38,552 nt of DNA from a virus, in IMG/VR virus record IMGVR_UViG_3300028831_000592, positions 1 through 38,552 of that record; one strand, given 5' to 3'. The position numbers were made by a program, and so were the translations under genes. Under the pieces are notes generated by a model that searched no databases, was not told where the DNA came from, and saw only the letters and a program-made list of their open reading frames with translations. Of this stretch, positions 9,243 to 21,093 are shown in pieces; the first letter of the stretch is position 1, and every line of letters starts with the position of its first letter.

Positions 9243-9442
9243 TGAATTGTCCAAATAACGCTTTAGAAGAACTGCAATTAAAGTATGAGCAATTAGCCAG
9301 CGCGATGGATCACTATAAGTTGATCATTTTTTTAATGCATAAACTCCTAGAAGAACTCCATGAAGCACACAGCGAGTCGAGGTTTAAGCTTTTAAAGGAA
9401 AAATTAGATTTTATGATGGACGAAGTTGAAAAATATCAATAA
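9239..9442 (+). CDS. Small helical protein
   Basis: A 67-aa ORF with an ATGA overlap to the previous gene. Confidence 0.5.
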   Translation: MMNCPNNALEELQLKYEQLASAMDHYKLIIFLMHKLLEELHEAHSESRFKLLKEKLDFMMDEVEKYQ

Positions 9443-9445
9443 AAA

Positions 9446-9661
9446 ATGAAGCTATCTAGATGGATGGTAGGAATGACCGATTTCTCAAAGGATGGATATG
9501 AAACCTACCTATCTTACTGTCCTTTTCATGAAGAGAACACCTCTTCTTTCTTTATAGATGGAAGAACAGGGCGATACTATTGTCTGAGTTGTGGAGAGTG
9601 CGGAGAAGTGGGTAACGTTATCTATCTGAGATATACAAAATGGCCAAAAATTGAATGGTAA
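9446..9661 (+). CDS. Stand-alone CHC2 (primase-type) zinc-finger protein
   Basis: CPFHEENTSSFFIDGRTGRYYCLSCGECG matches CPFHxExxPSFxV....CFxCGxxG. There is no TOPRIM or polymerase domain. Confidence 0.6.
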   Translation: MKLSRWMVGMTDFSKDGYETYLSYCPFHEENTSSFFIDGRTGRYYCLSCGECGEVGNVIYLRYTKWPKIEW

Positions 9662-11979: not shown

Positions 11980-12241
11980 GGAAAAATTAACAATGAAAAT
12001 TAAGTCTGACAAAAACATAAATGATTTTCTGACAGGTATTGAAGTAGAAGATAAACTTAGAAAGCTAATTCTTTATGGATCACGTATTAATTTTTCGTGT
12101 GTTCAGATGCTGTCTAATCCACAATACCGAGATCTTACTGAAATTCTATTTAATCTTGAATTGATTAAAAATGTAACCAATACCTTAATGAAAATTCATG
12201 ACGATAATGTAGAACAGTATATAAATGCACATAGATCTTGA
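11960..12241 (+). CDS. AT-rich inserted gene (93 aa) between the duplicated terL 5' ends, function unknown
   Basis: The ATG lies 3 nt after the end of repeat copy 1. The stop overlaps the terL start at 12225. The sequence is visibly more AT-rich than its flanks. Confidence 0.5.
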   Translation: MDKEVRKEKLTMKIKSDKNINDFLTGIEVEDKLRKLILYGSRINFSCVQMLSNPQYRDLTEILFNLELIKNVTNTLMKIHDDNVEQYINAHRS

Positions 12242-13790
12242 TAAAGAGTCAATGGTCTCTGAGCTTCAAGGTAGCCTTCTTGAGTTCTGCAAAGTTTTCT
12301 ATCCCCTCCTCACTGGGCGGGATTTCATAATATCAACACCGCTAGGGAGGGAGCCTCATGCGATTACGATCTCGCGTGCGCTTACGAGAGCAGCGCGTTT
12401 ACAAATTCCGAGTCAACGACTCCTCATCGCGGTGCCCCCAGGGCACGGTAAAAGCACGTTTCTGGCTCTTTGGGTTGCTTGGACTCTTAGCATTTATCCT
12501 GACAGTCGTTATTTGTATATTAGCTATTCAAAGTCTCTTGCAGCTAAGCATACTGAAACTATTAAGCGCATTATTAGCCTTAGGCATTATCAGTATCTTT
12601 TTGACGTGTCTATACGACATGATTCGAAGGCGAAAGAGTTCTTCCAAACCAACCACGGCGGCTCCATAGCAGCTTTTGGGTCAGGAGGTGCTATAGTAGG
12701 GCAAGATGGAGGACTTCCAGGGCTGGATAGGTTCTCAGGGGCCGTTATAGTCGATGACCCGCACAAGATAGACGAGGCCCACTCGGATACCATTCGACAG
12801 AGCGTTATTGAGAATTATAGAGAGACCATACAGCAAAGAGCAAGGGGCGTGAACGTTCCCTACATATACATAGGACAGCGGGTCCATGAAGCAGACCTTG
12901 CAGCGTATCTTCTGGACGGGAAAGATGGCTACTCATGGGAGAGAGTCATCCTAAAGAGCATAGACGATGCCGGAAATGCCCTCTACCCAGAGGCATTTCC
13001 GCTTGAGTCATTATTGATTAAGCAAGAGCGTGATCCGTACGTATTCGCATCCCAATTCCAACAGAACCCAATACCCGCAGGGGGTGGCCTATTCAAGCCT
13101 GAATGGTTTGTTGTCTTGCCTAGAGAGCCTGATATCCTATTCACATTCCTAACCTGCGATACAGCCGAGACCTCAAAGAGTTGGAATGATGCCACGAGCT
13201 TCTGTTTCTGGGGAGTCTATGAGATTGAGAACTTCGGAAGAAAGACGGGGGAACTTGGGCTCCACTGGTTAGACTGTATGGAGATTAGGGTTGAGCCCAA
13301 GGACCTTAGGGACCAGTTTATCATATTCTACAGTGACTGTTGCCGGCATAAGGTCCCTCCCCTCATGGCAGCGATAGAGAAGAAATCCACTGGTGTTACG
13401 CTTATCTCCATTCTAAAAGAAATCAGAGGGCTGACTATAAGGGAGATAGAAAGGACCAGGGCATCAGGCAGCAAGACGCAGCGCTTTCTTGAAATTCAGC
13501 CCTACATAGCCTCAAAATACGTATCCTTTACTGAGGGTGCATCTCACGTAACCATGTGCATTGACCATATGACGAAAATCACGGCAAACGAATCTCATCG
13601 CCATGACGATATCGCAGATTGCGCCTGTGATGCTATAAGACTGGCGCTTATTGATAAAACGGTATACAGTATAGATAAGAAAGATAACACACGCAGTGCT
13701 ATCTTAAGTGAGCTCAACAGGAAGTTGGGTGACAAAATAACAGCAGGGAACGCTAGATATGACGAAAGAGGTAGCGGCTCGCTACGGTGA
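12225..13790 (+). CDS. terL: Terminase large subunit
   Basis: Walker A VPPGHGKST and Walker B VIVDDPHK are present. The C-terminal nuclease-like motifs are LTCDTAET and HDDIADCACDA. The protein is 521 aa and lies directly upstream of the portal gene. Confidence 0.9.
   Translation: MHIDLDKESMVSELQGSLLEFCKVFYPLLTGRDFIISTPLGREPHAITISRALTRAARLQIPSQRLLIAVPPGHGKSTFLALWVAWTLSIYPDSRYLYISYSKSLAAKHTETIKRIISLRHYQYLFDVSIRHDSKAKEFFQTNHGGSIAAFGSGGAIVGQDGGLPGLDRFSGAVIVDDPHKIDEAHSDTIRQSVIENYRETIQQRARGVNVPYIYIGQRVHEADLAAYLLDGKDGYSWERVILKSIDDAGNALYPEAFPLESLLIKQERDPYVFASQFQQNPIPAGGGLFKPEWFVVLPREPDILFTFLTCDTAETSKSWNDATSFCFWGVYEIENFGRKTGELGLHWLDCMEIRVEPKDLRDQFIIFYSDCCRHKVPPLMAAIEKKSTGVTLISILKEIRGLTIREIERTRASGSKTQRFLEIQPYIASKYVSFTEGASHVTMCIDHMTKITANESHRHDDIADCACDAIRLALIDKTVYSIDKKDNTRSAILSELNRKLGDKITAGNARYDERGSGSLR
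12240..12325 (+). repeat. 86-bp direct repeat, copy 2
   Basis: See copy 1. Confidence 0.9.
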
Positions 13791-15918
13791 GCGTCTTAAA
13801 GACTTAAAGGAAACGGTCGAAAAGGCGAATGAGTACTTCAAAGAGAACGTAAATCGATATAACGACTTCGTTAACTTTGTGTTCAATACCTCAATGAACC
13901 AACAAGAGGTTGCCGCGCTTCTCAATACCGGACGCCCTACTCTTGAGTTCAATATACTGGAGGCCTATATAAGCCGACTACGTGGTGAGTTCGCAAAACA
14001 GCAGCCTTCCATCATGGTGAGAGCCGCCGACGGTGTCCCCCTATCCTCCTTAACGCCCGCATTTACAGAAACCCTAAAGGTCCTTGAAGGCCACTTAGGC
14101 TCCATATTCTCAGAATCTGCCAATGACATGCTTGCCTATAACGTCTACACTGACTTATTGGCTGGTGGCTTTTCGGCAGTTAAAGTTTTCACCGAATATG
14201 TAAACGAGATGTCATTTGAGCAAAAGGTATGCGTTGAGCGAGTCTTCGACCCTACCCTATGCTTCTTTGACCCGTTAGCACGAGAATCTCACAAGGGCGA
14301 TGGACGCTTTTGTGGAGAAGTAAGCCCAATGACTCGAGAAGCTTTTGAGGAGCAGTACGGCAAGGACGCCACTTCCTCTATGAATTTTACTCGCTCGCTG
14401 TCAGGCTTTAGTTGGTCCTTTACGAATGAAAAAGAGGACATCGTTTTAGTCTGTGACTTTTACGAAAAGAAAAAGAAAAAGGAAAAAATTGTTAAGCTCT
14501 CCAATGGTCATACGGTCACCGAGAAATCTTACAAAAAATTCCTGAAGGAATGGGAGGAAGGAGGCTTTATTGAGCAGCCTCCTATTCCGGTGGGTGAGCC
14601 TAGGATGACCACCATAGAAACCATCTGCCGGTATCGCTTCTGCGAAACGCGCGTGTTGGAATATGTCGAGACAGACTATAAGTATCTCCCCATTATATTT
14701 GTCGATGGTAACTCAATCACCATAACCAAATCCGGCTCCTCTAGCCAGATGACGAGGCCCTATGTGTATCATGCAAAGGGGCTTCAGAGGCTGAAAAATT
14801 ATGCCGGGCAATCCCTTGCAAATGAGTTGGAAAATACAATTCAACACAAATTCATAGTAGCCATCGAATCTATCCCAGAAGACTATCAAACAGCTTACCA
14901 AAATGTGCAAAAGGCAGATACTTTGGTTTACAATCATTTTCTGGACGCTCGCAACCCCGATGTACAACTCCCTCCCCCTCGTGAGGTTAATCGTACCCCC
15001 ATACCTCCAGAAATCCCCAATACGTTTAGAATGAGCGACGAAATGACACAGGTGATTCTGGGGTCGTATGATGGAGCCGCAGGTGTCGCTCAGGACAACC
15101 TAAGTGGAATAGCCTTCGCACGCTCAGCCCTACAAAGCAATAACGCATCGATGCCTTATATTATCGGTTACATTAAGGGCTTAAACCGCGTAGCCCAGCT
15201 TGTAATCGATTTAATTCCTAAGTACTACCGTACCCCTAGGACCCTACCAATCATGCTTCCTGATGGAAAGCGCTCGCATATAGAGATAAACAAAAAGGGC
15301 TCTCTCTATATGAACTACGACCCTAACTCGCTTGAGGTTAAGGTTGAGGTCGGCGTTAACTTCGCAATGCAGAAGGAAATTGCACTTAATACCATGATTG
15401 CCATGACAAGAGCTTCTCCCCTCTTCGCTGAATTCATTGGCCAACAAGGATTGCAACTCTGGCTGGATAATATTGATATCCGAGGCATTGAAGGGCTTAA
15501 AGAAAAAGCAGTTCAATTCGAGAAGCAACAAATGCAAAAAGCTCAACAAGCTCAAATGCAAGAAATGCAAATGCAACAAGCTCAGATACAGCAGATGCAA
15601 CAGCAAGCTCAAATCGAACAGCAAAAAGCCCAGCTTGAAATGCAGCAATTCCAAAGAACGATGCAATCTCCAACTATTGAAGAGCTTGGCCTTATGTCCA
15701 TACAAGAGAAAGCCAAGCTGGATGCAGCCAATGTAGCTATTAAAGAGCGAGATTCAGAAACCAAGTTTGTAGAGGCCATGGCCAAGATTGAACTACAAGG
15801 CCTTGAGCTTGATCAAAAGGCAGCTCAGCAGGACGCTGAAACTGCAAGAGAAGTCATCAGAGATATCAAAGACATGTCTGATACCTTTGAGCGCGTAAAC
15901 CAAAATAAGGAGAAATGA
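13759..15918 (+). CDS. Portal protein (P22 gp1-like) with a Q-rich C-terminal coiled-coil barrel
   Basis: The 719-aa protein follows terL. Its architecture and local motifs resemble the P22 portal as I recall it. The C-terminus reads QQMQKAQQAQMQEMQMQQAQIQQMQQQAQIEQQKAQ. Confidence 0.85.
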   Translation: MTKEVAARYGERLKDLKETVEKANEYFKENVNRYNDFVNFVFNTSMNQQEVAALLNTGRPTLEFNILEAYISRLRGEFAKQQPSIMVRAADGVPLSSLTPAFTETLKVLEGHLGSIFSESANDMLAYNVYTDLLAGGFSAVKVFTEYVNEMSFEQKVCVERVFDPTLCFFDPLARESHKGDGRFCGEVSPMTREAFEEQYGKDATSSMNFTRSLSGFSWSFTNEKEDIVLVCDFYEKKKKKEKIVKLSNGHTVTEKSYKKFLKEWEEGGFIEQPPIPVGEPRMTTIETICRYRFCETRVLEYVETDYKYLPIIFVDGNSITITKSGSSSQMTRPYVYHAKGLQRLKNYAGQSLANELENTIQHKFIVAIESIPEDYQTAYQNVQKADTLVYNHFLDARNPDVQLPPPREVNRTPIPPEIPNTFRMSDEMTQVILGSYDGAAGVAQDNLSGIAFARSALQSNNASMPYIIGYIKGLNRVAQLVIDLIPKYYRTPRTLPIMLPDGKRSHIEINKKGSLYMNYDPNSLEVKVEVGVNFAMQKEIALNTMIAMTRASPLFAEFIGQQGLQLWLDNIDIRGIEGLKEKAVQFEKQQMQKAQQAQMQEMQMQQAQIQQMQQQAQIEQQKAQLEMQQFQRTMQSPTIEELGLMSIQEKAKLDAANVAIKERDSETKFVEAMAKIELQGLELDQKAAQQDAETAREVIRDIKDMSDTFERVNQNKEK

Positions 15919-16098: not shown

Positions 16099-16290
16099 AT
16101 GGCTGAGAAAAAGAACTTTATAAAAAGCGCCATAAAGCATCCTGGCGCACTTCGGAAATCGCTTCACGTAAAAAAAGGTGAAAAAATTTCGGAAGAGAAG
16201 CTTGAGAAGGCCGAGCATAGTAAGAACCCTACAATGCGTCGCAGAGCCAATCTCGCCGAGACCTTAGGCAAGCTTAGAAGGAAGAAATAA
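16099..16290 (+). CDS. Small conserved phage protein (HPGALRKxL ... RRRANLAETL pattern; I recall this family as DUF3008)
   Basis: The 63-aa ORF carries that motif pattern, which is common between portal and scaffold genes of podoviruses. Confidence 0.55.
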   Translation: MAEKKNFIKSAIKHPGALRKSLHVKKGEKISEEKLEKAEHSKNPTMRRRANLAETLGKLRRKK

Positions 16291-16433
16291 TGCCCCTCGT
16301 TAAAGGACCCAAAGCTAGGACGAAGGCTGGCATAGCGAAAAATATACGTGCCGAATCTGTAAGTAAGCCGCATAAACAAGCTGTTGCAATAGCTATGTCT
16401 CTAGCTAAAAAAGGTACCAAAAAACGGAAATGA
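16290..16433 (+). CDS. Small basic protein, 47 aa (MPLVKGPKARTKAGIAKNIRAESVSKPHKQAVAIAMSLAKKGTKKRK)
   Basis: Hand translation, with a TAATG overlap to the previous gene. Confidence 0.45.
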   Translation: MPLVKGPKARTKAGIAKNIRAESVSKPHKQAVAIAMSLAKKGTKKRK

Positions 16434-16555: not shown

Positions 16556-16732
16556 GAAATTGAAGTTAGATAAATTAGGTTAGGTTGAATTTTAACTGAA
16601 CTAAAAGATTGGTGGACCATCCACTTAAAAACTGGGTTTAACTTTGTGGTTTAAGGAATAAGCCACCGGACTCAACGATTGAGGTCTACCGCTGCACGCG
16701 GGTAACAGTGTAAAAGAAAGGAAGGATTGTTT

Positions 16733-17437
16733 ATGGATGAACAAGAATTAAGTGGCGGAGCCACGCCTTCTCAACCGGCTGAAAAGATGTTAAGCCAGGC
16801 TGAGGTGAATGCGATTGTAGCTCGTGAAAAACAGGCTGCAGCTGCGCGTGCACGGCAAGAAGCTGAGAGAGAGTATCAACAACGTGCTGAGCAAGCTCAA
16901 GCGCAAATGGCGCAACAGCAACCTCAGAGAGAGGAACAGCAACGCTACCCAAGCGATGCTGATGCCGATGCAATCTATCAGCAGGTCCAAGAGCGCTTCA
17001 ATAGGGAGATGCAAGAACGTCAGTTCCAATCGGAAATGACCAATGTTGCAAATGCTTATCACGCGAAGATGGACTTAGGCCGTAAAGGGTATACCGATTT
17101 CGATGAGGTGACAAAGGATTTCGATCCGACTGCATTTCCACAGCTCGTCTACTTAGTAGCAGGCGTGGAGAATGCGGGTGACATTATCTACGAACTCAGT
17201 AAGAACCCCCAAAAGCTCGTAACGCTCGATTCCTTGGCAAAGACGTCACCACGTCTTGCACAAGCTGAATTGGTGCGCCTGTCTCAGTCTATCACGCAAA
17301 ATAACGTGGCTAGAAATGAGGCACAGCAAAACCCAACTCAAGCTCCGTTATCTCCATTGCAACCTTCACGTGTATCCGGAAGCAATGGTCAGATGACGAT
17401 TCGAGATTTGCGCTCGCAGCCTTGGCTGAGAGGGTAG
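16733..17437 (+). CDS. Scaffolding protein
   Basis: It lies between portal and coat. AEVNAIVAREKQAAAARARQEAEREYQQRAEQAQAQ is typical of Q/A/E-rich helical scaffold proteins. I prefer the ATG at 16733, after GAAAGGAAGGA. Confidence 0.7.
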   Translation: MDEQELSGGATPSQPAEKMLSQAEVNAIVAREKQAAAARARQEAEREYQQRAEQAQAQMAQQQPQREEQQRYPSDADADAIYQQVQERFNREMQERQFQSEMTNVANAYHAKMDLGRKGYTDFDEVTKDFDPTAFPQLVYLVAGVENAGDIIYELSKNPQKLVTLDSLAKTSPRLAQAELVRLSQSITQNNVARNEAQQNPTQAPLSPLQPSRVSGSNGQMTIRDLRSQPWLRG

Positions 17438-17489: not shown

Positions 17490-17930
17490 ATGTCAACTAA
17501 TAACATTTTGCAACAGGTTATTACCTATAACGAAAGTAACCTCGCGCTTCTATTAAACTCGTTCTGCTTTTTAAGCACAGCAAACAAGAAGTTTGTTGGC
17601 TTTAATGATTCGGTCCCTAAAAACTTGGGCGATACTGTATCGTTCGATTTGCCCCCTCGTTTTACCACAACGAATTCCTTGGTTGTTACATTCCAACCTG
17701 CGGTTCAAAGGGTGCAAACCTTAACGGTAAACCAACAAGTCAGCACTGCATATGAGTTCACTGCCCAACAATTTATATTCAACGTACGTGATTATATGGA
17801 ACGTTTTGGGATGTCTGCTGTGTCTGAAATTGGTACTCAGATTGAATCTAATATCGCTCAACTTGCCGAAACGAATACCTACCGTTTCTATGGAGATGGG
17901 GTGAATCCAATAAACAGTTATTTGCAGCTT
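17490..17930 (+). CDS. Major capsid (coat) protein, P22-like, exon 1
   Basis: The ATG at 17490 is preceded by GGAGA. The reading frame is interrupted by the intron, and the proposed exon end is after U17930 (...NSYLQL). Confidence 0.75.
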
Positions 17931-18179
17931 TGCGACAGTAGAGCCGCTGCTTAGTAATAAGCAGATGAAACCGGGTGAACTCAGGGGAAGTCTCAAGTAG
18001 ACAATCCTGATCTAAGCCTCGAAAGAGGAAAGAGCAACGACTAGAGAGAAATCTCGTACACTCAAGTGAGTGGAAGTGCCCGGCCCCTGAATCAGGGTGA
18101 AGATATAGTCTAATCTACCAGGCGACTGGTAGCTGCCGAAAGGCGGGTTAGGATTAACGACCTTAACTGAATATAAATG
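17931..18179 (+). ncRNA. Group I self-splicing intron, ORF-less, with a T4 td-like (IA2-type) core
   Basis: Paired stems are P2 17947-52/17959-64, P3 17971-75/18079-83 and P4 17981-85/18006-10. P6 18017-20/18025-28 has a GAAA loop and P8 is 18085-89/18093-97. P9 18115-21/18126-32 has a GCGA loop and P9.1 18133-37/18142-46 has a GAAA loop. Conserved strings are GTAGACAATCC, AGATATAGTC and the 3' end GATTAACGACCTTAACTGAATATAAATG. The intron ends in G. Confidence 0.8.
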
Positions 18180-18986
18180 GCAAATGCACTAGCCTTCTTC
18201 CGTAACTACGGCGCTGCTGTAATGGATACCAAGGGCTTCTTATCGGATTTAACATTCCCACTAATCGTAAACTCTGGCTTAAATCAATTTACGCTTAACC
18301 GTGGTAATGAAGAGGCTATGTCATGGGAAATCGGCGAATTCAGCAATTGCGAATGGTACCAATCTAACCTTCTTAAGACCCACATTGCAGGTACTGAAGG
18401 CCAACAAGCTTCTGTATTAACGGTTGTTTCTACTACTTTAGATGCTAATGGTGCCGTTATTGCTATTACCTTTAGTGGTACGAATGCAGCTAATGATGTT
18501 AACTCTGTTAAGGCTTATGACAAGTTCATGTTTAGTGATGGTGTATCTGGCCAACCTAACATGCGTTATTTAACTTTCATAGGTCATAAGGTCTCTCAAA
18601 ACCCTGTGCAGTTCCGCGCTACAGCAGATGCAGGTTCAACAGCCGGTTCTCAAGTAACGGTCAATATCTTCCCTCCATTGCAAGTTAATGCAGGCCAAGA
18701 TCAAAACATCAACAACCCAATCGTTGCTGGTATGCAGGTAACCGTTCTTCCAAGCCATAGATGCGGCTTAATTTACTCCGGTAACCCATTGTTCCTAGCG
18801 ATGCCAAGGCTACCAGAAGAAGTTCCATACCCAACTGCGATTGCGACCGACCCAGACTCAGGTGCCTCTTTAAGAAGCTACTACGGGTCATTGTTCGGTC
18901 AAAACCAACGTGGTTATGTAACCGATTGCATCTGGGGGTCTACATTGGTAGACGAATACGCTATGATGGTGGCACTTCCTGTGTAA
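18180..18986 (+). CDS. Major capsid (coat) protein, P22-like, exon 2
   Basis: In-frame TGA and TAA lie just upstream (18168-70 and 18174-76). The spliced product is 415 aa, with the junction reading ...INSYLQL|ANALAFFRNYG.... The C-terminus YGSLFGQNQRGYVTDCIWGSTLV resembles the P22 coat C-terminus. Confidence 0.75.
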   Translation, partial: ANALAFFRNYGAAVMDTKGFLSDLTFPLIVNSGLNQFTLNRGNEEAMSWEIGEFSNCEWYQSNLLKTHIAGTEGQQASVLTVVSTTLDANGAVIAITFSGTNAANDVNSVKAYDKFMFSDGVSGQPNMRYLTFIGHKVSQNPVQFRATADAGSTAGSQVTVNIFPPLQVNAGQDQNINNPIVAGMQVTVLPSHRCGLIYSGNPLFLAMPRLPEEVPYPTAIATDPDSGASLRSYYGSLFGQNQRGYVTDCIWGSTLVDEYAMMVALPV

Positions 18987-19041: not shown

Positions 19042-19611
19042 ATGACCGAAAGTAGTAAAGAAGTATATGTTGGTAGAGCAGATATGGGGAGCGGTAGAAG
19101 TCCTTTTTGCTCAACGTGTAGGCAGCTTAAAGAACCTGGTCGTGAAAACGAAAGCAGGTGCAAAAAATGCAAAAGTGATGCTAATAAGGCACGAAGAGCA
19201 AGAAAACGGGAAGAGAAGGGAATGCCTCCTTTCAATTCAGGACGAAAGCCAGAATGTTGCAGATGCGGTGGTCCGAAAGAAGTTTTGACTGCTGGATATT
19301 GTAACAAATGCCATAGTTATAAGGCTAGGGCCAGAAGAAAGGTAAACAGAGAAAGTGCTATATTTATTGAAAATGAGAGAAATAAAGTTAATGAAAGATA
19401 TAGAAACGATCCTGATTTTGCGCTTAAAAAGCTTGTTAGAGCTGCTACCAATAAATGCATCAAAGCTGGAATTTTGGTTAAAAAGCCCTGTGAGGTATGC
19501 GGGAATAAAAAGGTTGATGCACATCATGATGACTATCAGAAACCATTGGATGTTAGGTGGCTTTGTAGGCTTCATCATGTTGAACATCATAGAAACGAAC
19601 TTAATAAATAG
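19042..19611 (+). CDS. Free-standing HNH-type endonuclease with two N-terminal zinc-ribbon/basic repeats
   Basis: The C-terminus CEVCGNKKVDAHHDDYQKPLDVRWLCRLHHVEHHR matches the C..CG...v.aHH.DY.KPL.V.WLC..CH..H pattern seen in phage HNH proteins. The N-terminal repeats are CSTC..CKKC and CCRC..CNKC, each followed by a K/R-rich segment. Confidence 0.7.
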   Translation: MTESSKEVYVGRADMGSGRSPFCSTCRQLKEPGRENESRCKKCKSDANKARRARKREEKGMPPFNSGRKPECCRCGGPKEVLTAGYCNKCHSYKARARRKVNRESAIFIENERNKVNERYRNDPDFALKKLVRAATNKCIKAGILVKKPCEVCGNKKVDAHHDDYQKPLDVRWLCRLHHVEHHRNELNK

Positions 19612-20382: not shown

Positions 20383-21093
20383 ATGGCTTATACAACGAAT
20401 CAACTCATAACAAACGCATTCTATTCCTCTGGTGTTGTTTCACGTGAGTTTGAAACGGTCAGTGGACAGCAGATAGGAGATGGCCTCTCTTGGCTTAACC
20501 AAATCATTGATGAGAAGGTGGTAGACGATGGAATGATTCCATACGAAAGCACCTATACATTCAATGCAGTACCAGGCCAAGAGATTTACTTTATACCGAA
20601 CCTTATTCAGATTGATACCTTAGTGTTCTTCCTGAATACGGTTCGATTCTCAATGATGTACAACAAGCGAAATAATTACTTTGGATCTAACCGCGTACAA
20701 AACATTAGGACGCTTCCTTATCAGTGGTACTTTGAAAGACAATTGCATGGTGGAAATCTATATATTTATTTCTCACCAGACCAAGCCTACCCAATGGAGC
20801 TTCACGGGACCTTTAGGCTTCCTGAGGTGACATTGGGTCAGGATTTAACGCTAACGTTGGATATGTTCTATATCACCTATCTGGTATATGCGTTAGCCGA
20901 TAGAATTTGTGCCGAATATAATTATGTAACACCGCCTGGAGTTACCAGGCAATTGGGTAAATATGAAGGATGGATTGATAAGAAATCTAGGTTATTGGAT
21001 TTGAGGCTTGAGAAGGTTTCATGCTTGAATAGCCATACAACTACCTATTCTTGGTCGTACATAAACTTGGGCCGAGGTTTCACTCCACCGTAA
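20383..21093 (+). CDS. Virion structural protein, possibly a head-tail adaptor by position (P22 gp4 position)
   Basis: A 236-aa ORF directly upstream of the gp10-like gene. The assignment rests on position only. Confidence 0.5.
   Translation: MAYTTNQLITNAFYSSGVVSREFETVSGQQIGDGLSWLNQIIDEKVVDDGMIPYESTYTFNAVPGQEIYFIPNLIQIDTLVFFLNTVRFSMMYNKRNNYFGSNRVQNIRTLPYQWYFERQLHGGNLYIYFSPDQAYPMELHGTFRLPEVTLGQDLTLTLDMFYITYLVYALADRICAEYNYVTPPGVTRQLGKYEGWIDKKSRLLDLRLEKVSCLNSHTTTYSWSYINLGRGFTPP

Follow-up and report, generated by a model that had tools for sequence, protein, structure and literature searches.

A probable ORF-less td-type group I intron interrupting the major capsid gene in an uncultured lineage of P22-like phages

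How is a major capsid protein obtained from a gene whose reading frame is broken well before its end? This question is raised by the window (the whole stretch of viral DNA analyzed here, a metagenome contig of 38,552 nt), in which the coat frame is open from 17478 and has a likely start codon at ATG 17490, preceded by GGAG at 17480-83. This frame runs into the stops TAG TAA TAA at 17952-17960, which belong to a 249-nt insertion carrying eight stops in the coat frame. The last of these are TGA 18168-70 and TAA 18174-76, and they are followed by ATG 18177-79, from which the frame is open again. Gene callers split the coat gene into two 'hypothetical proteins' of 158 and 269 aa, the latter corresponding to exon 2 and starting at ATG 18177, i.e. 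with the last three bases of the insertion. [quoted passage not shown] Our results make it very probable that 17931-18179 is an ORF-less td-type (IA2-like) group I intron in the major capsid gene, with splice sites after U17930 and G18179, a reading based on sequence evidence. The gene would then be organized as follows.

17490-17930, plus strand: coat (major capsid) gene exon 1, from ATG 17490 to ...CAG CTT, ending at a codon boundary
17931-18179, plus strand: group I intron, 249 nt, ORF-less, as indicated by RF00028, exact insertion and covariation; architecture of subgroup IA (td-like)
18179, plus strand: terminal G (omega G), with the 3' splice site directly after it
18180-18986, plus strand: coat gene exon 2, from GCA AAT GCA ... 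to the stop codon

The insertion belongs to the group I family. The preliminary description had named Rfam RF00028 as the model to search, and this model yields a significant match to 17921-18132, with 77.5 bits (gathering score 50) and an E-value of 3.6e-18, over its full length (model positions 1-253). This is the sole Rfam match within the 38.5-kb window, and intron-less coat controls have no Rfam match. In the RF00028 alignment, U17930 and G17941 occupy the consensus U.G column of P1. No endonuclease ORF was detected within the intron, and no ORF of 40 aa or more is found inside 17931-18179. A blastn comparison of the intron with phage introns gives a figure of about 70% over the core.

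The boundaries of the insertion are equally precise. When position 17930 is joined to 18180, a continuous coat protein of 415 aa is obtained, which matches the PHROG 283 major head protein family (1.6e-19) and has 2842 homologues in a large protein collection. The best of these are uninterrupted, 414-416 aa long and at most 95% identical. The junction ...NSYLQL^ANALAFFRN... (^ marks a junction or an insertion point throughout) aligns with intron-less homologues without any gap or insertion, the flanking residues being invariant, and both exons, which are highly conserved, keep the register of uninterrupted homologues. At the DNA level, alignment with L001, a 37.4-kb contig that is the nearest relative lacking the intron, shows a single 249-nt gap, located exactly here. 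The ligated exon DNA reads ...TATTTGCAGCTT^GCAAATGCACTA..., i.e. CAGCTT^GCAAAT. As the bases beside each junction differ, no alternative cut yields the same mRNA. The single gap relative to L001 and the gap-free protein junction thus place both splice sites exactly where the preliminary description had proposed them. The annotation problem is not confined to the window, as coat fragments of 369 and 269 aa from relatives are present on dozens of contigs.

The neighbouring genes place the interrupted gene, as the one for the major capsid protein, within a P22-type head module, which includes the following genes.

12225-13790: terminase
13759-15918: P22-type portal (PF16510 P22_portal, 9e-92)
16727-17437: scaffold-like gene
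20383-21093: SU10-type adaptor

The remaining sequence of the window encodes the full head module. The gene had previously been called a P22-like coat gene. This designation is supported by the P22-type portal next door, by PHROG 283 and by a weak match (E 0.003) between the coat-family profile and the Sf6 gp5 structures ('Gene 5 protein', 5l35/7sp4), but not by Pfam, in which a search with the coat, P22 coat family included, returned no family at E <= 0.01. A megablast search of GenBank phages with the coat region found no close relative, and the nearest cultured coat proteins (annotated coats of Vibrio and Shewanella podophages) are only about 25% identical; the coat lineage is an uncultured one, from metagenomes. 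Names attached to its members vary: an uninterrupted coat homologue from JGI (P0013) is named 'phosphotransferase system HPr-like phosphotransfer protein', apparently by mis-annotation, and further homologues carry the name 'P22 coat protein - gene protein 5'.

Two other features of the window were recorded. Between the portal and the scaffold-like gene, at 16099-16433 on the plus strand, lies a pair of short ORFs with very basic, Lys/Arg-rich products of 63 and 47 aa, at a place where L001 has three small genes. On the minus strand, at 684-2454, a RecT gene (2.1e-40) adjoins a gene for a YqaJ-type exonuclease (3e-28), and this recombination pair could aid homing or repair between co-infecting genomes.

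The intron sequence folds into a full group I secondary structure, consisting of the following elements (all on the plus strand).

17927-17944: P1, in which exon GCUU and intron UGC pair with GUAGAGC (17938-17944); loop GACA, guide sequence GAGC
17947-17964: P2, CUGCUU/AAGCAG, loop AGUAAU; contains the in-frame UAG UAA UAA (17952-17960)
17971-75/18079-83: P3, CCGGG/CCCGG, spanning 17971-18083
17981-86/18005-10: P4, within P3, TCAGG/CCTGA
17991-93/17999-18001: P5, within P3
18011-13/18031-33: P6, within P3
18017-20/18025-28: P6a, within P3, GAAA loop
18039-43/18106-10: P7 pseudoknot, GACUA with UAGUC, 5' strand inside P3
18044-47/18052-55: P7.1, within P3, GAAA loop
18059-63/18068-72: P7.2, within P3
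18085-18097: P8, CCCUG/CAGGG
18115-21/18126-32: P9, GCGA loop, in the peripheral 3' domain (18115-18166)
18133-37/18142-46: P9.1, GAAA loop, in the peripheral 3' domain
18148-52/18162-66: P9.2, loop with conserved UAACG, in the peripheral 3' domain

By analogy with td, P7 is the putative guanosine-binding helix. Seven stems had already been recognized by eye, namely P2, P3, P4, P6 (CCTC-GAAA-GAGG), P8, P9 (CTACCAG-GCGA-CTGGTAG), and P9.1 (CTGCC-GAAA-GGCGG), and we recovered all of them in the same places; P5, P7, P7.1, P7.2, and P9.2, which were absent from that list, are present too. The unconstrained minimum free energy fold of 17921-18185 reaches -92.3 kcal/mol (z = -5.0), a value as good as which was obtained for none of 200 dinucleotide shuffles, and this fold alone recovers P1, P2, P3, P4, P5, P6/P6a, P7.1, P7.2, P8, P9, P9.1, and P9.2.

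To the window intron we added eight relatives found in coat genes and in T4-like td, as well as about 40 from environmental sequences, and covariation was evaluated in a MAFFT alignment of these 49 introns. Standard pairs are found in 90.5% of the cells, a share that drops to 32-45% once the 3' partners have been shifted by one to three columns. Both-sided changes affect 54 of the 70 pairs, and none of 500 column shuffles attains any of the observed measures. In these 49 introns, pairing amounts to 98.4% for P3, 98.3% for P4, 96-97% for P6/P6a, and 100% for P7. The values for P7.1 and P7.2 are 93.4% and 99.6%, respectively, with compensatory changes in all nine pairs, and such changes are also seen in all six pairs of P2. 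More generally, pairing amounts to 93-100% for each of the helices P2, P3, P4, P6a, P7.1, P7.2, and P9, and nearly every pair in them shows a compensatory change. P8 and P9.1 are paired in only 57.6% and 67.8% of cases in this broad alignment, probably because the length of these hairpins varies and MAFFT misaligns them. The U.G column of P1 is retained in all seven sequences covering P1. When we read the sequence by eye, we could not draw a convincing P10, in which exon 2 would pair with the guide region.

How close is the resemblance to td? As a reference, we used the 320-nt intron of Tequatrovirus U115 (L218, 1063-1382), which has no annotated ORF and scores 70.3 bits with RF00028, compared with 77.5 bits for the window intron. 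(In the record of this Escherichia phage, MZ753803.1, the td exons are annotated as separate 'putative thymidylate synthase' CDSs, with no intron feature.) The strings that the preliminary description had ascribed to T4 td, namely GTAGACAATCC, GAAGATATAGTC, and the 3' end GATTAACGACCTTATCTGAACATAATG, are all present in this real td intron. Both introns have the same helix order, in which P7.1 (18044-18055 in the window) and P7.2 (18059-18072) come after the 5' strand of P7 and before the 3' strand of P3, and in which P9, P9.1, and P9.2 form the tail. They also have identical P7 strands (GACUA/UAGUC), a common J8/7 sequence (GAAGAUAUAGUC), the sequence GUAGACAAUCC, and a near-identical 3' tail (GAUUAACGACCUUAxCUGAAxAUAAUG). 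In contrast, their global identity is only about 54%, their host genes encode thymidylate synthase and a capsid protein, respectively, and the window intron has neither the I-TevI ORF nor the P6 extension of td, while its P1 and guide sequence are unrelated. The term 'td-like' is therefore appropriate for the architecture (P7.1/P7.2, P9.1/P9.2, P7 sequence, and 3' tail), but not as a statement of close kinship. We take the intron to belong to IA2 rather than to another IA subgroup, from its resemblance to td and the general classification of group I introns.

Splicing is expected to proceed by the steps of standard group I chemistry. The coat pre-mRNA would fold into the ribozyme, and a free guanosine bound in P7 would attack the phosphodiester after U17930, at a site set by the U17930.G17941 wobble in P1. 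G18179 would next enter the guanosine site and the exons would be ligated as ...CAG CUU^GCA AAU..., producing an mRNA from which the continuous 415-aa coat could be translated. The stops within P2 (17952-17960) would release ribosomes ahead of the catalytic core. Splicing would have to be efficient, since no other late gene is expressed as heavily as that of the capsid.

How such an intron reaches its site may be approached through its relatives, as introns of the same lineage occupy four positions in coat genes of this family. These positions, with the pairing between the exon end and the guide sequence at each of them, are as follows.

Site A, between codons 47 and 48 (...AAC TTA GGT^GAT ACA...): intron of 247 nt, RF00028 72-76 bits, carried by L043 (2630-2876), L045 (2642-2888), and L048 (766-1012), with an immediate in-frame TAA at the intron start; exon aggU, guide GCCU
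Site B, the site of the window, after Leu147: also carried by L208/L209, L224/L225, and L226, whose introns are 92-93% identical to that of the window, RF00028 77-88 bits; exon gcuU, guide GAGC in the window
L227, ~2765-3017: intron 7 nt upstream of site B, inside the Leu145 codon (TAC TT^G CAA), 80% identical to that of the window; exon acuU, guide GAGU
L156, ~9339-9583, minus strand: intron 11 nt upstream of site B, inside the Tyr144 codon, 79% identical to that of the window, in a coat gene whose product is 51% identical; exon agcU, guide GGCU

Three of the four insertion positions fall within 11 nt. Site-A introns were found in five of the 80 best IMG/VR coat loci (three distinct intron sequences), and site-A-type exon 2 fragments of 369 aa are present on dozens of public contigs, one fragment occurring on 36 of them. 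Besides the window, three other genotypes have site B occupied (L208/L209, L224/L225, and L226), and the exons are intact in all four. All four site-B genotypes have CTT as the Leu codon, as required by P1, whereas intron-less alleles mostly have TTA or TTG. Each of the related introns at the three other positions also yields a spliced coat that is gap-free at the junction: the L227 product aligns with that of the window over all 415 residues without gaps, and no gap is seen near the junction for L156. The site-A intron is 87% identical to that of the window over the part that begins with P3 and includes the 3' end, whereas the value for P1-P2 is only 56%. In every copy, the last exon base is a U opposite a G, and the preceding three bases pair with the guide sequence.

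The window and L227 sites have a common target motif, CUU^GCAA, and their guides are one base apart (GAGC vs GAGU), which is the pattern expected from reverse splicing into look-alike sites. It is possible, though on balance doubtful, that a single ribozyme lineage has moved to new targets several times within one capsid gene family, in which case the four positions would be a record of reverse-splicing transposition guided by a pairing of 4-6 nt, and not by a homing endonuclease. Exact-pattern scans of metagenome_contigs and genome_contigs for the site-B 5' end (TGCGACAGTAGAGCNGCNNNNNAGTAAT) gave 0 matches, with a pattern that would miss the variant P1 loop of L224. The four insertion positions, with their matched guides, could be used to test how ORF-less introns reach new sites, and this multi-site occupancy might be the sole aspect of the present data likely to draw specialist follow-up.

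Another route of dissemination has to be weighed, as the coat gene of the window is followed by a second insertion.

19042-19611, plus strand: free-standing Cys-rich HNH/EndoVII-like nuclease ORF, 189 aa, 56 nt past the coat stop codon

This ORF corresponds to an insertion of about 0.6 kb, located downstream of the coat gene and ahead of the following one and absent from L001, and is separated from the intron by 863 nt. It matches the PHROG 2340 endonuclease family (8e-15) and, weakly, PHROG 2255 (HNH endonuclease); Pfam and NCBIfam searches gave nothing useful, and nothing nuclease-like was found among PDB sequences. An AlphaFold model built with 44 homologues (pLDDT 90.9) displays a C-terminal beta-beta-alpha unit, in which C150, C153, H161, H162, D163, C175, and H179 are invariant. 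Foldseek retrieved no match to this model in the PDB with E <= 0.001, and HNHc-domain and endonuclease VII proteins among predicted viral proteins (BFVD), with E-values of 1e-4 to 1e-6. The designation of this ORF as a nuclease thus comes from PHROGs and BFVD. The protein has 749 homologues in the protein collection, none of which is named, and many coat genes of the lineage that have no interruption are followed by such a homologue in this position.

An ORF-less intron in a gene that is adjoined by a free-standing HNH/EndoVII-type nuclease gene is an arrangement also known from collaborative homing, as documented for the DNA polymerase intron of the T7-like phage phiI, which is paired with a free-standing HNH endonuclease, and for the psbA intron of S-PM2, paired with F-CphI (PMC3984707; PMC6083498 for F-CphI). 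Under collaborative (trans) homing, the nuclease encoded at 19042-19611 would cut intron-less coat alleles (e.g. the L010-type ...TTACAGCTTGCAAATGC...) at or near the insertion site, the intron would split the site in its own genome, and both elements would be co-converted. Consistent with this scenario, both elements are missing from L001, a second site-B intron carrier (L209) has an HNH-like ORF right after its coat gene, the confidently modelled beta-beta-alpha element, the viral HNHc/EndoVII matches and PHROG 2340 all point to a nuclease, and the window carries the recombination genes RecT and YqaJ.

However, intron and nuclease gene co-occur poorly. The nuclease ORF directly follows a coat gene with a site-B intron in the window and in L209, but it is missing after the intron-bearing coat genes of L224/L225, L227, and L156, at or near site B, as well as after the site-A coat genes examined (L043 and L045). 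Conversely, it follows 13 of the 75 intron-less IMG/VR coat loci and is also found without the intron in L210-L213 and L219-L223, and its four closest homologues (62-73% identical) are all located after uninterrupted coat genes. Unlike in the phiI and S-PM2 pairs, the two elements are thus more often apart than together in this lineage, and a general linkage between them was rejected once more carriers of each element had been retrieved. Furthermore, site-B DNA is nearly identical in intron-less genomes with and without the nuclease, so that a collaborative nuclease would cut its own genome. Finally, no co-conversion tract was seen around the intron, exon identity beside the intron being 79-80%, versus 91.6% within it. 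We therefore consider collaborative homing improbable at this locus. The HNH-like gene is most readily interpreted as a selfish element inserted independently at a hot spot, and this would most likely also be its part in the scenario that we prefer, in which the endonuclease-less intron would persist probably by vertical descent, with occasional spread through recombination of co-infecting phages or reverse splicing. The patchy occurrence of the adjacent HNH-like gene could be exploited to test whether free-standing nucleases help ORF-less introns.

Could the insertion have decayed, or never splice, the coat gene being a pseudogene in a defective genome or a source of two separate polypeptides? 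The two ORFs of 158 and 269 aa reported by gene callers would fit such a reading, but it is very unlikely in view of the conservation of the locus. Every core helix has been preserved, as have the U.G pair and the terminal G, and the differences among intron copies are overwhelmingly compensatory. Four genotypes keep the intron together with intact exons and the exon 1 end CTT that P1 needs, both coat exons are conserved in register with uninterrupted homologues, and the contig otherwise encodes a full head module. That some other form of recoding bridges the gap, be it an intein or translational bypassing of the T4 gene 60 kind, is suggested by the interrupted frame only and deserves next to no credence, since the eight in-frame stops of the 249-nt gap rule out an intein and the gap gives a strong and specific match to the group I covariance model; moreover, the bypass of gene 60 spans only a fifth of this length.

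If the coat gene of the window is interrupted by a group I intron, as we believe, how unusual is this situation? The preliminary description regarded introns in phage structural genes as uncommon, which is an overstatement given the published cases (PMC3706429, PMC7886860) and the environmental relatives found in head genes. Published capsid-gene introns include those of lactococcal phage Tuc2009 and of mycobacteriophage LittleE, the latter with demonstrated splicing (PMC3706429), and introns in the MCP gene are known from crAss-like Delta/Zeta phages (PMC7886860). All of these are tailed phages in which, as in the window, a group I (or probably group I) intron resides in the structural gene with the highest expression. 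The LittleE intron, however, is about 820 bp long and includes an endonuclease ORF, whereas that of the window is a minimal ORF-less intron of 249 nt, and the crAss-like introns were recognized through endonuclease domains, of which the window intron has none. The host also differs, being a P22-type podophage lineage from metagenomes alone. What is new here is the presence of an intron in this uncultured P22-like lineage, with no annotation in the records examined. Its recognition allows the major capsid protein to be annotated correctly in a widespread uncultured lineage (2842 homologues), and the accepted picture of phage group I introns is unchanged.

Introns of this lineage extend well beyond P22-like coat genes. 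The P7.2 motif GTACACTCAAGTGAGTGGAAG is carried by at least 120 IMG/VR contigs among the matches listed, and the environmental relatives have the same core and belong to the same size class (~215-290 nt). Among sampled contigs with this motif, 32 of the 67 distinct downstream exon peptides fall into one cluster, which includes PHROG 1328 major head protein genes. Two such genes contain three introns each.

L154, 1493-2886, minus strand: three introns of the lineage in a PHROG 1328 major head protein gene
L202, 2695-3720: three introns of the lineage in a PHROG 1328 major head protein gene

The PHROG 1328 carriers differ from the window in both capsid protein family and phage lineage. Capsid genes are thus an ordinary location for introns of this lineage among environmental phages. 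Other copies reside in genes which, from reading the peptides, we take to be DNA polymerase, tape-measure-like, terminase-like, and ribonucleotide-reductase-like genes.
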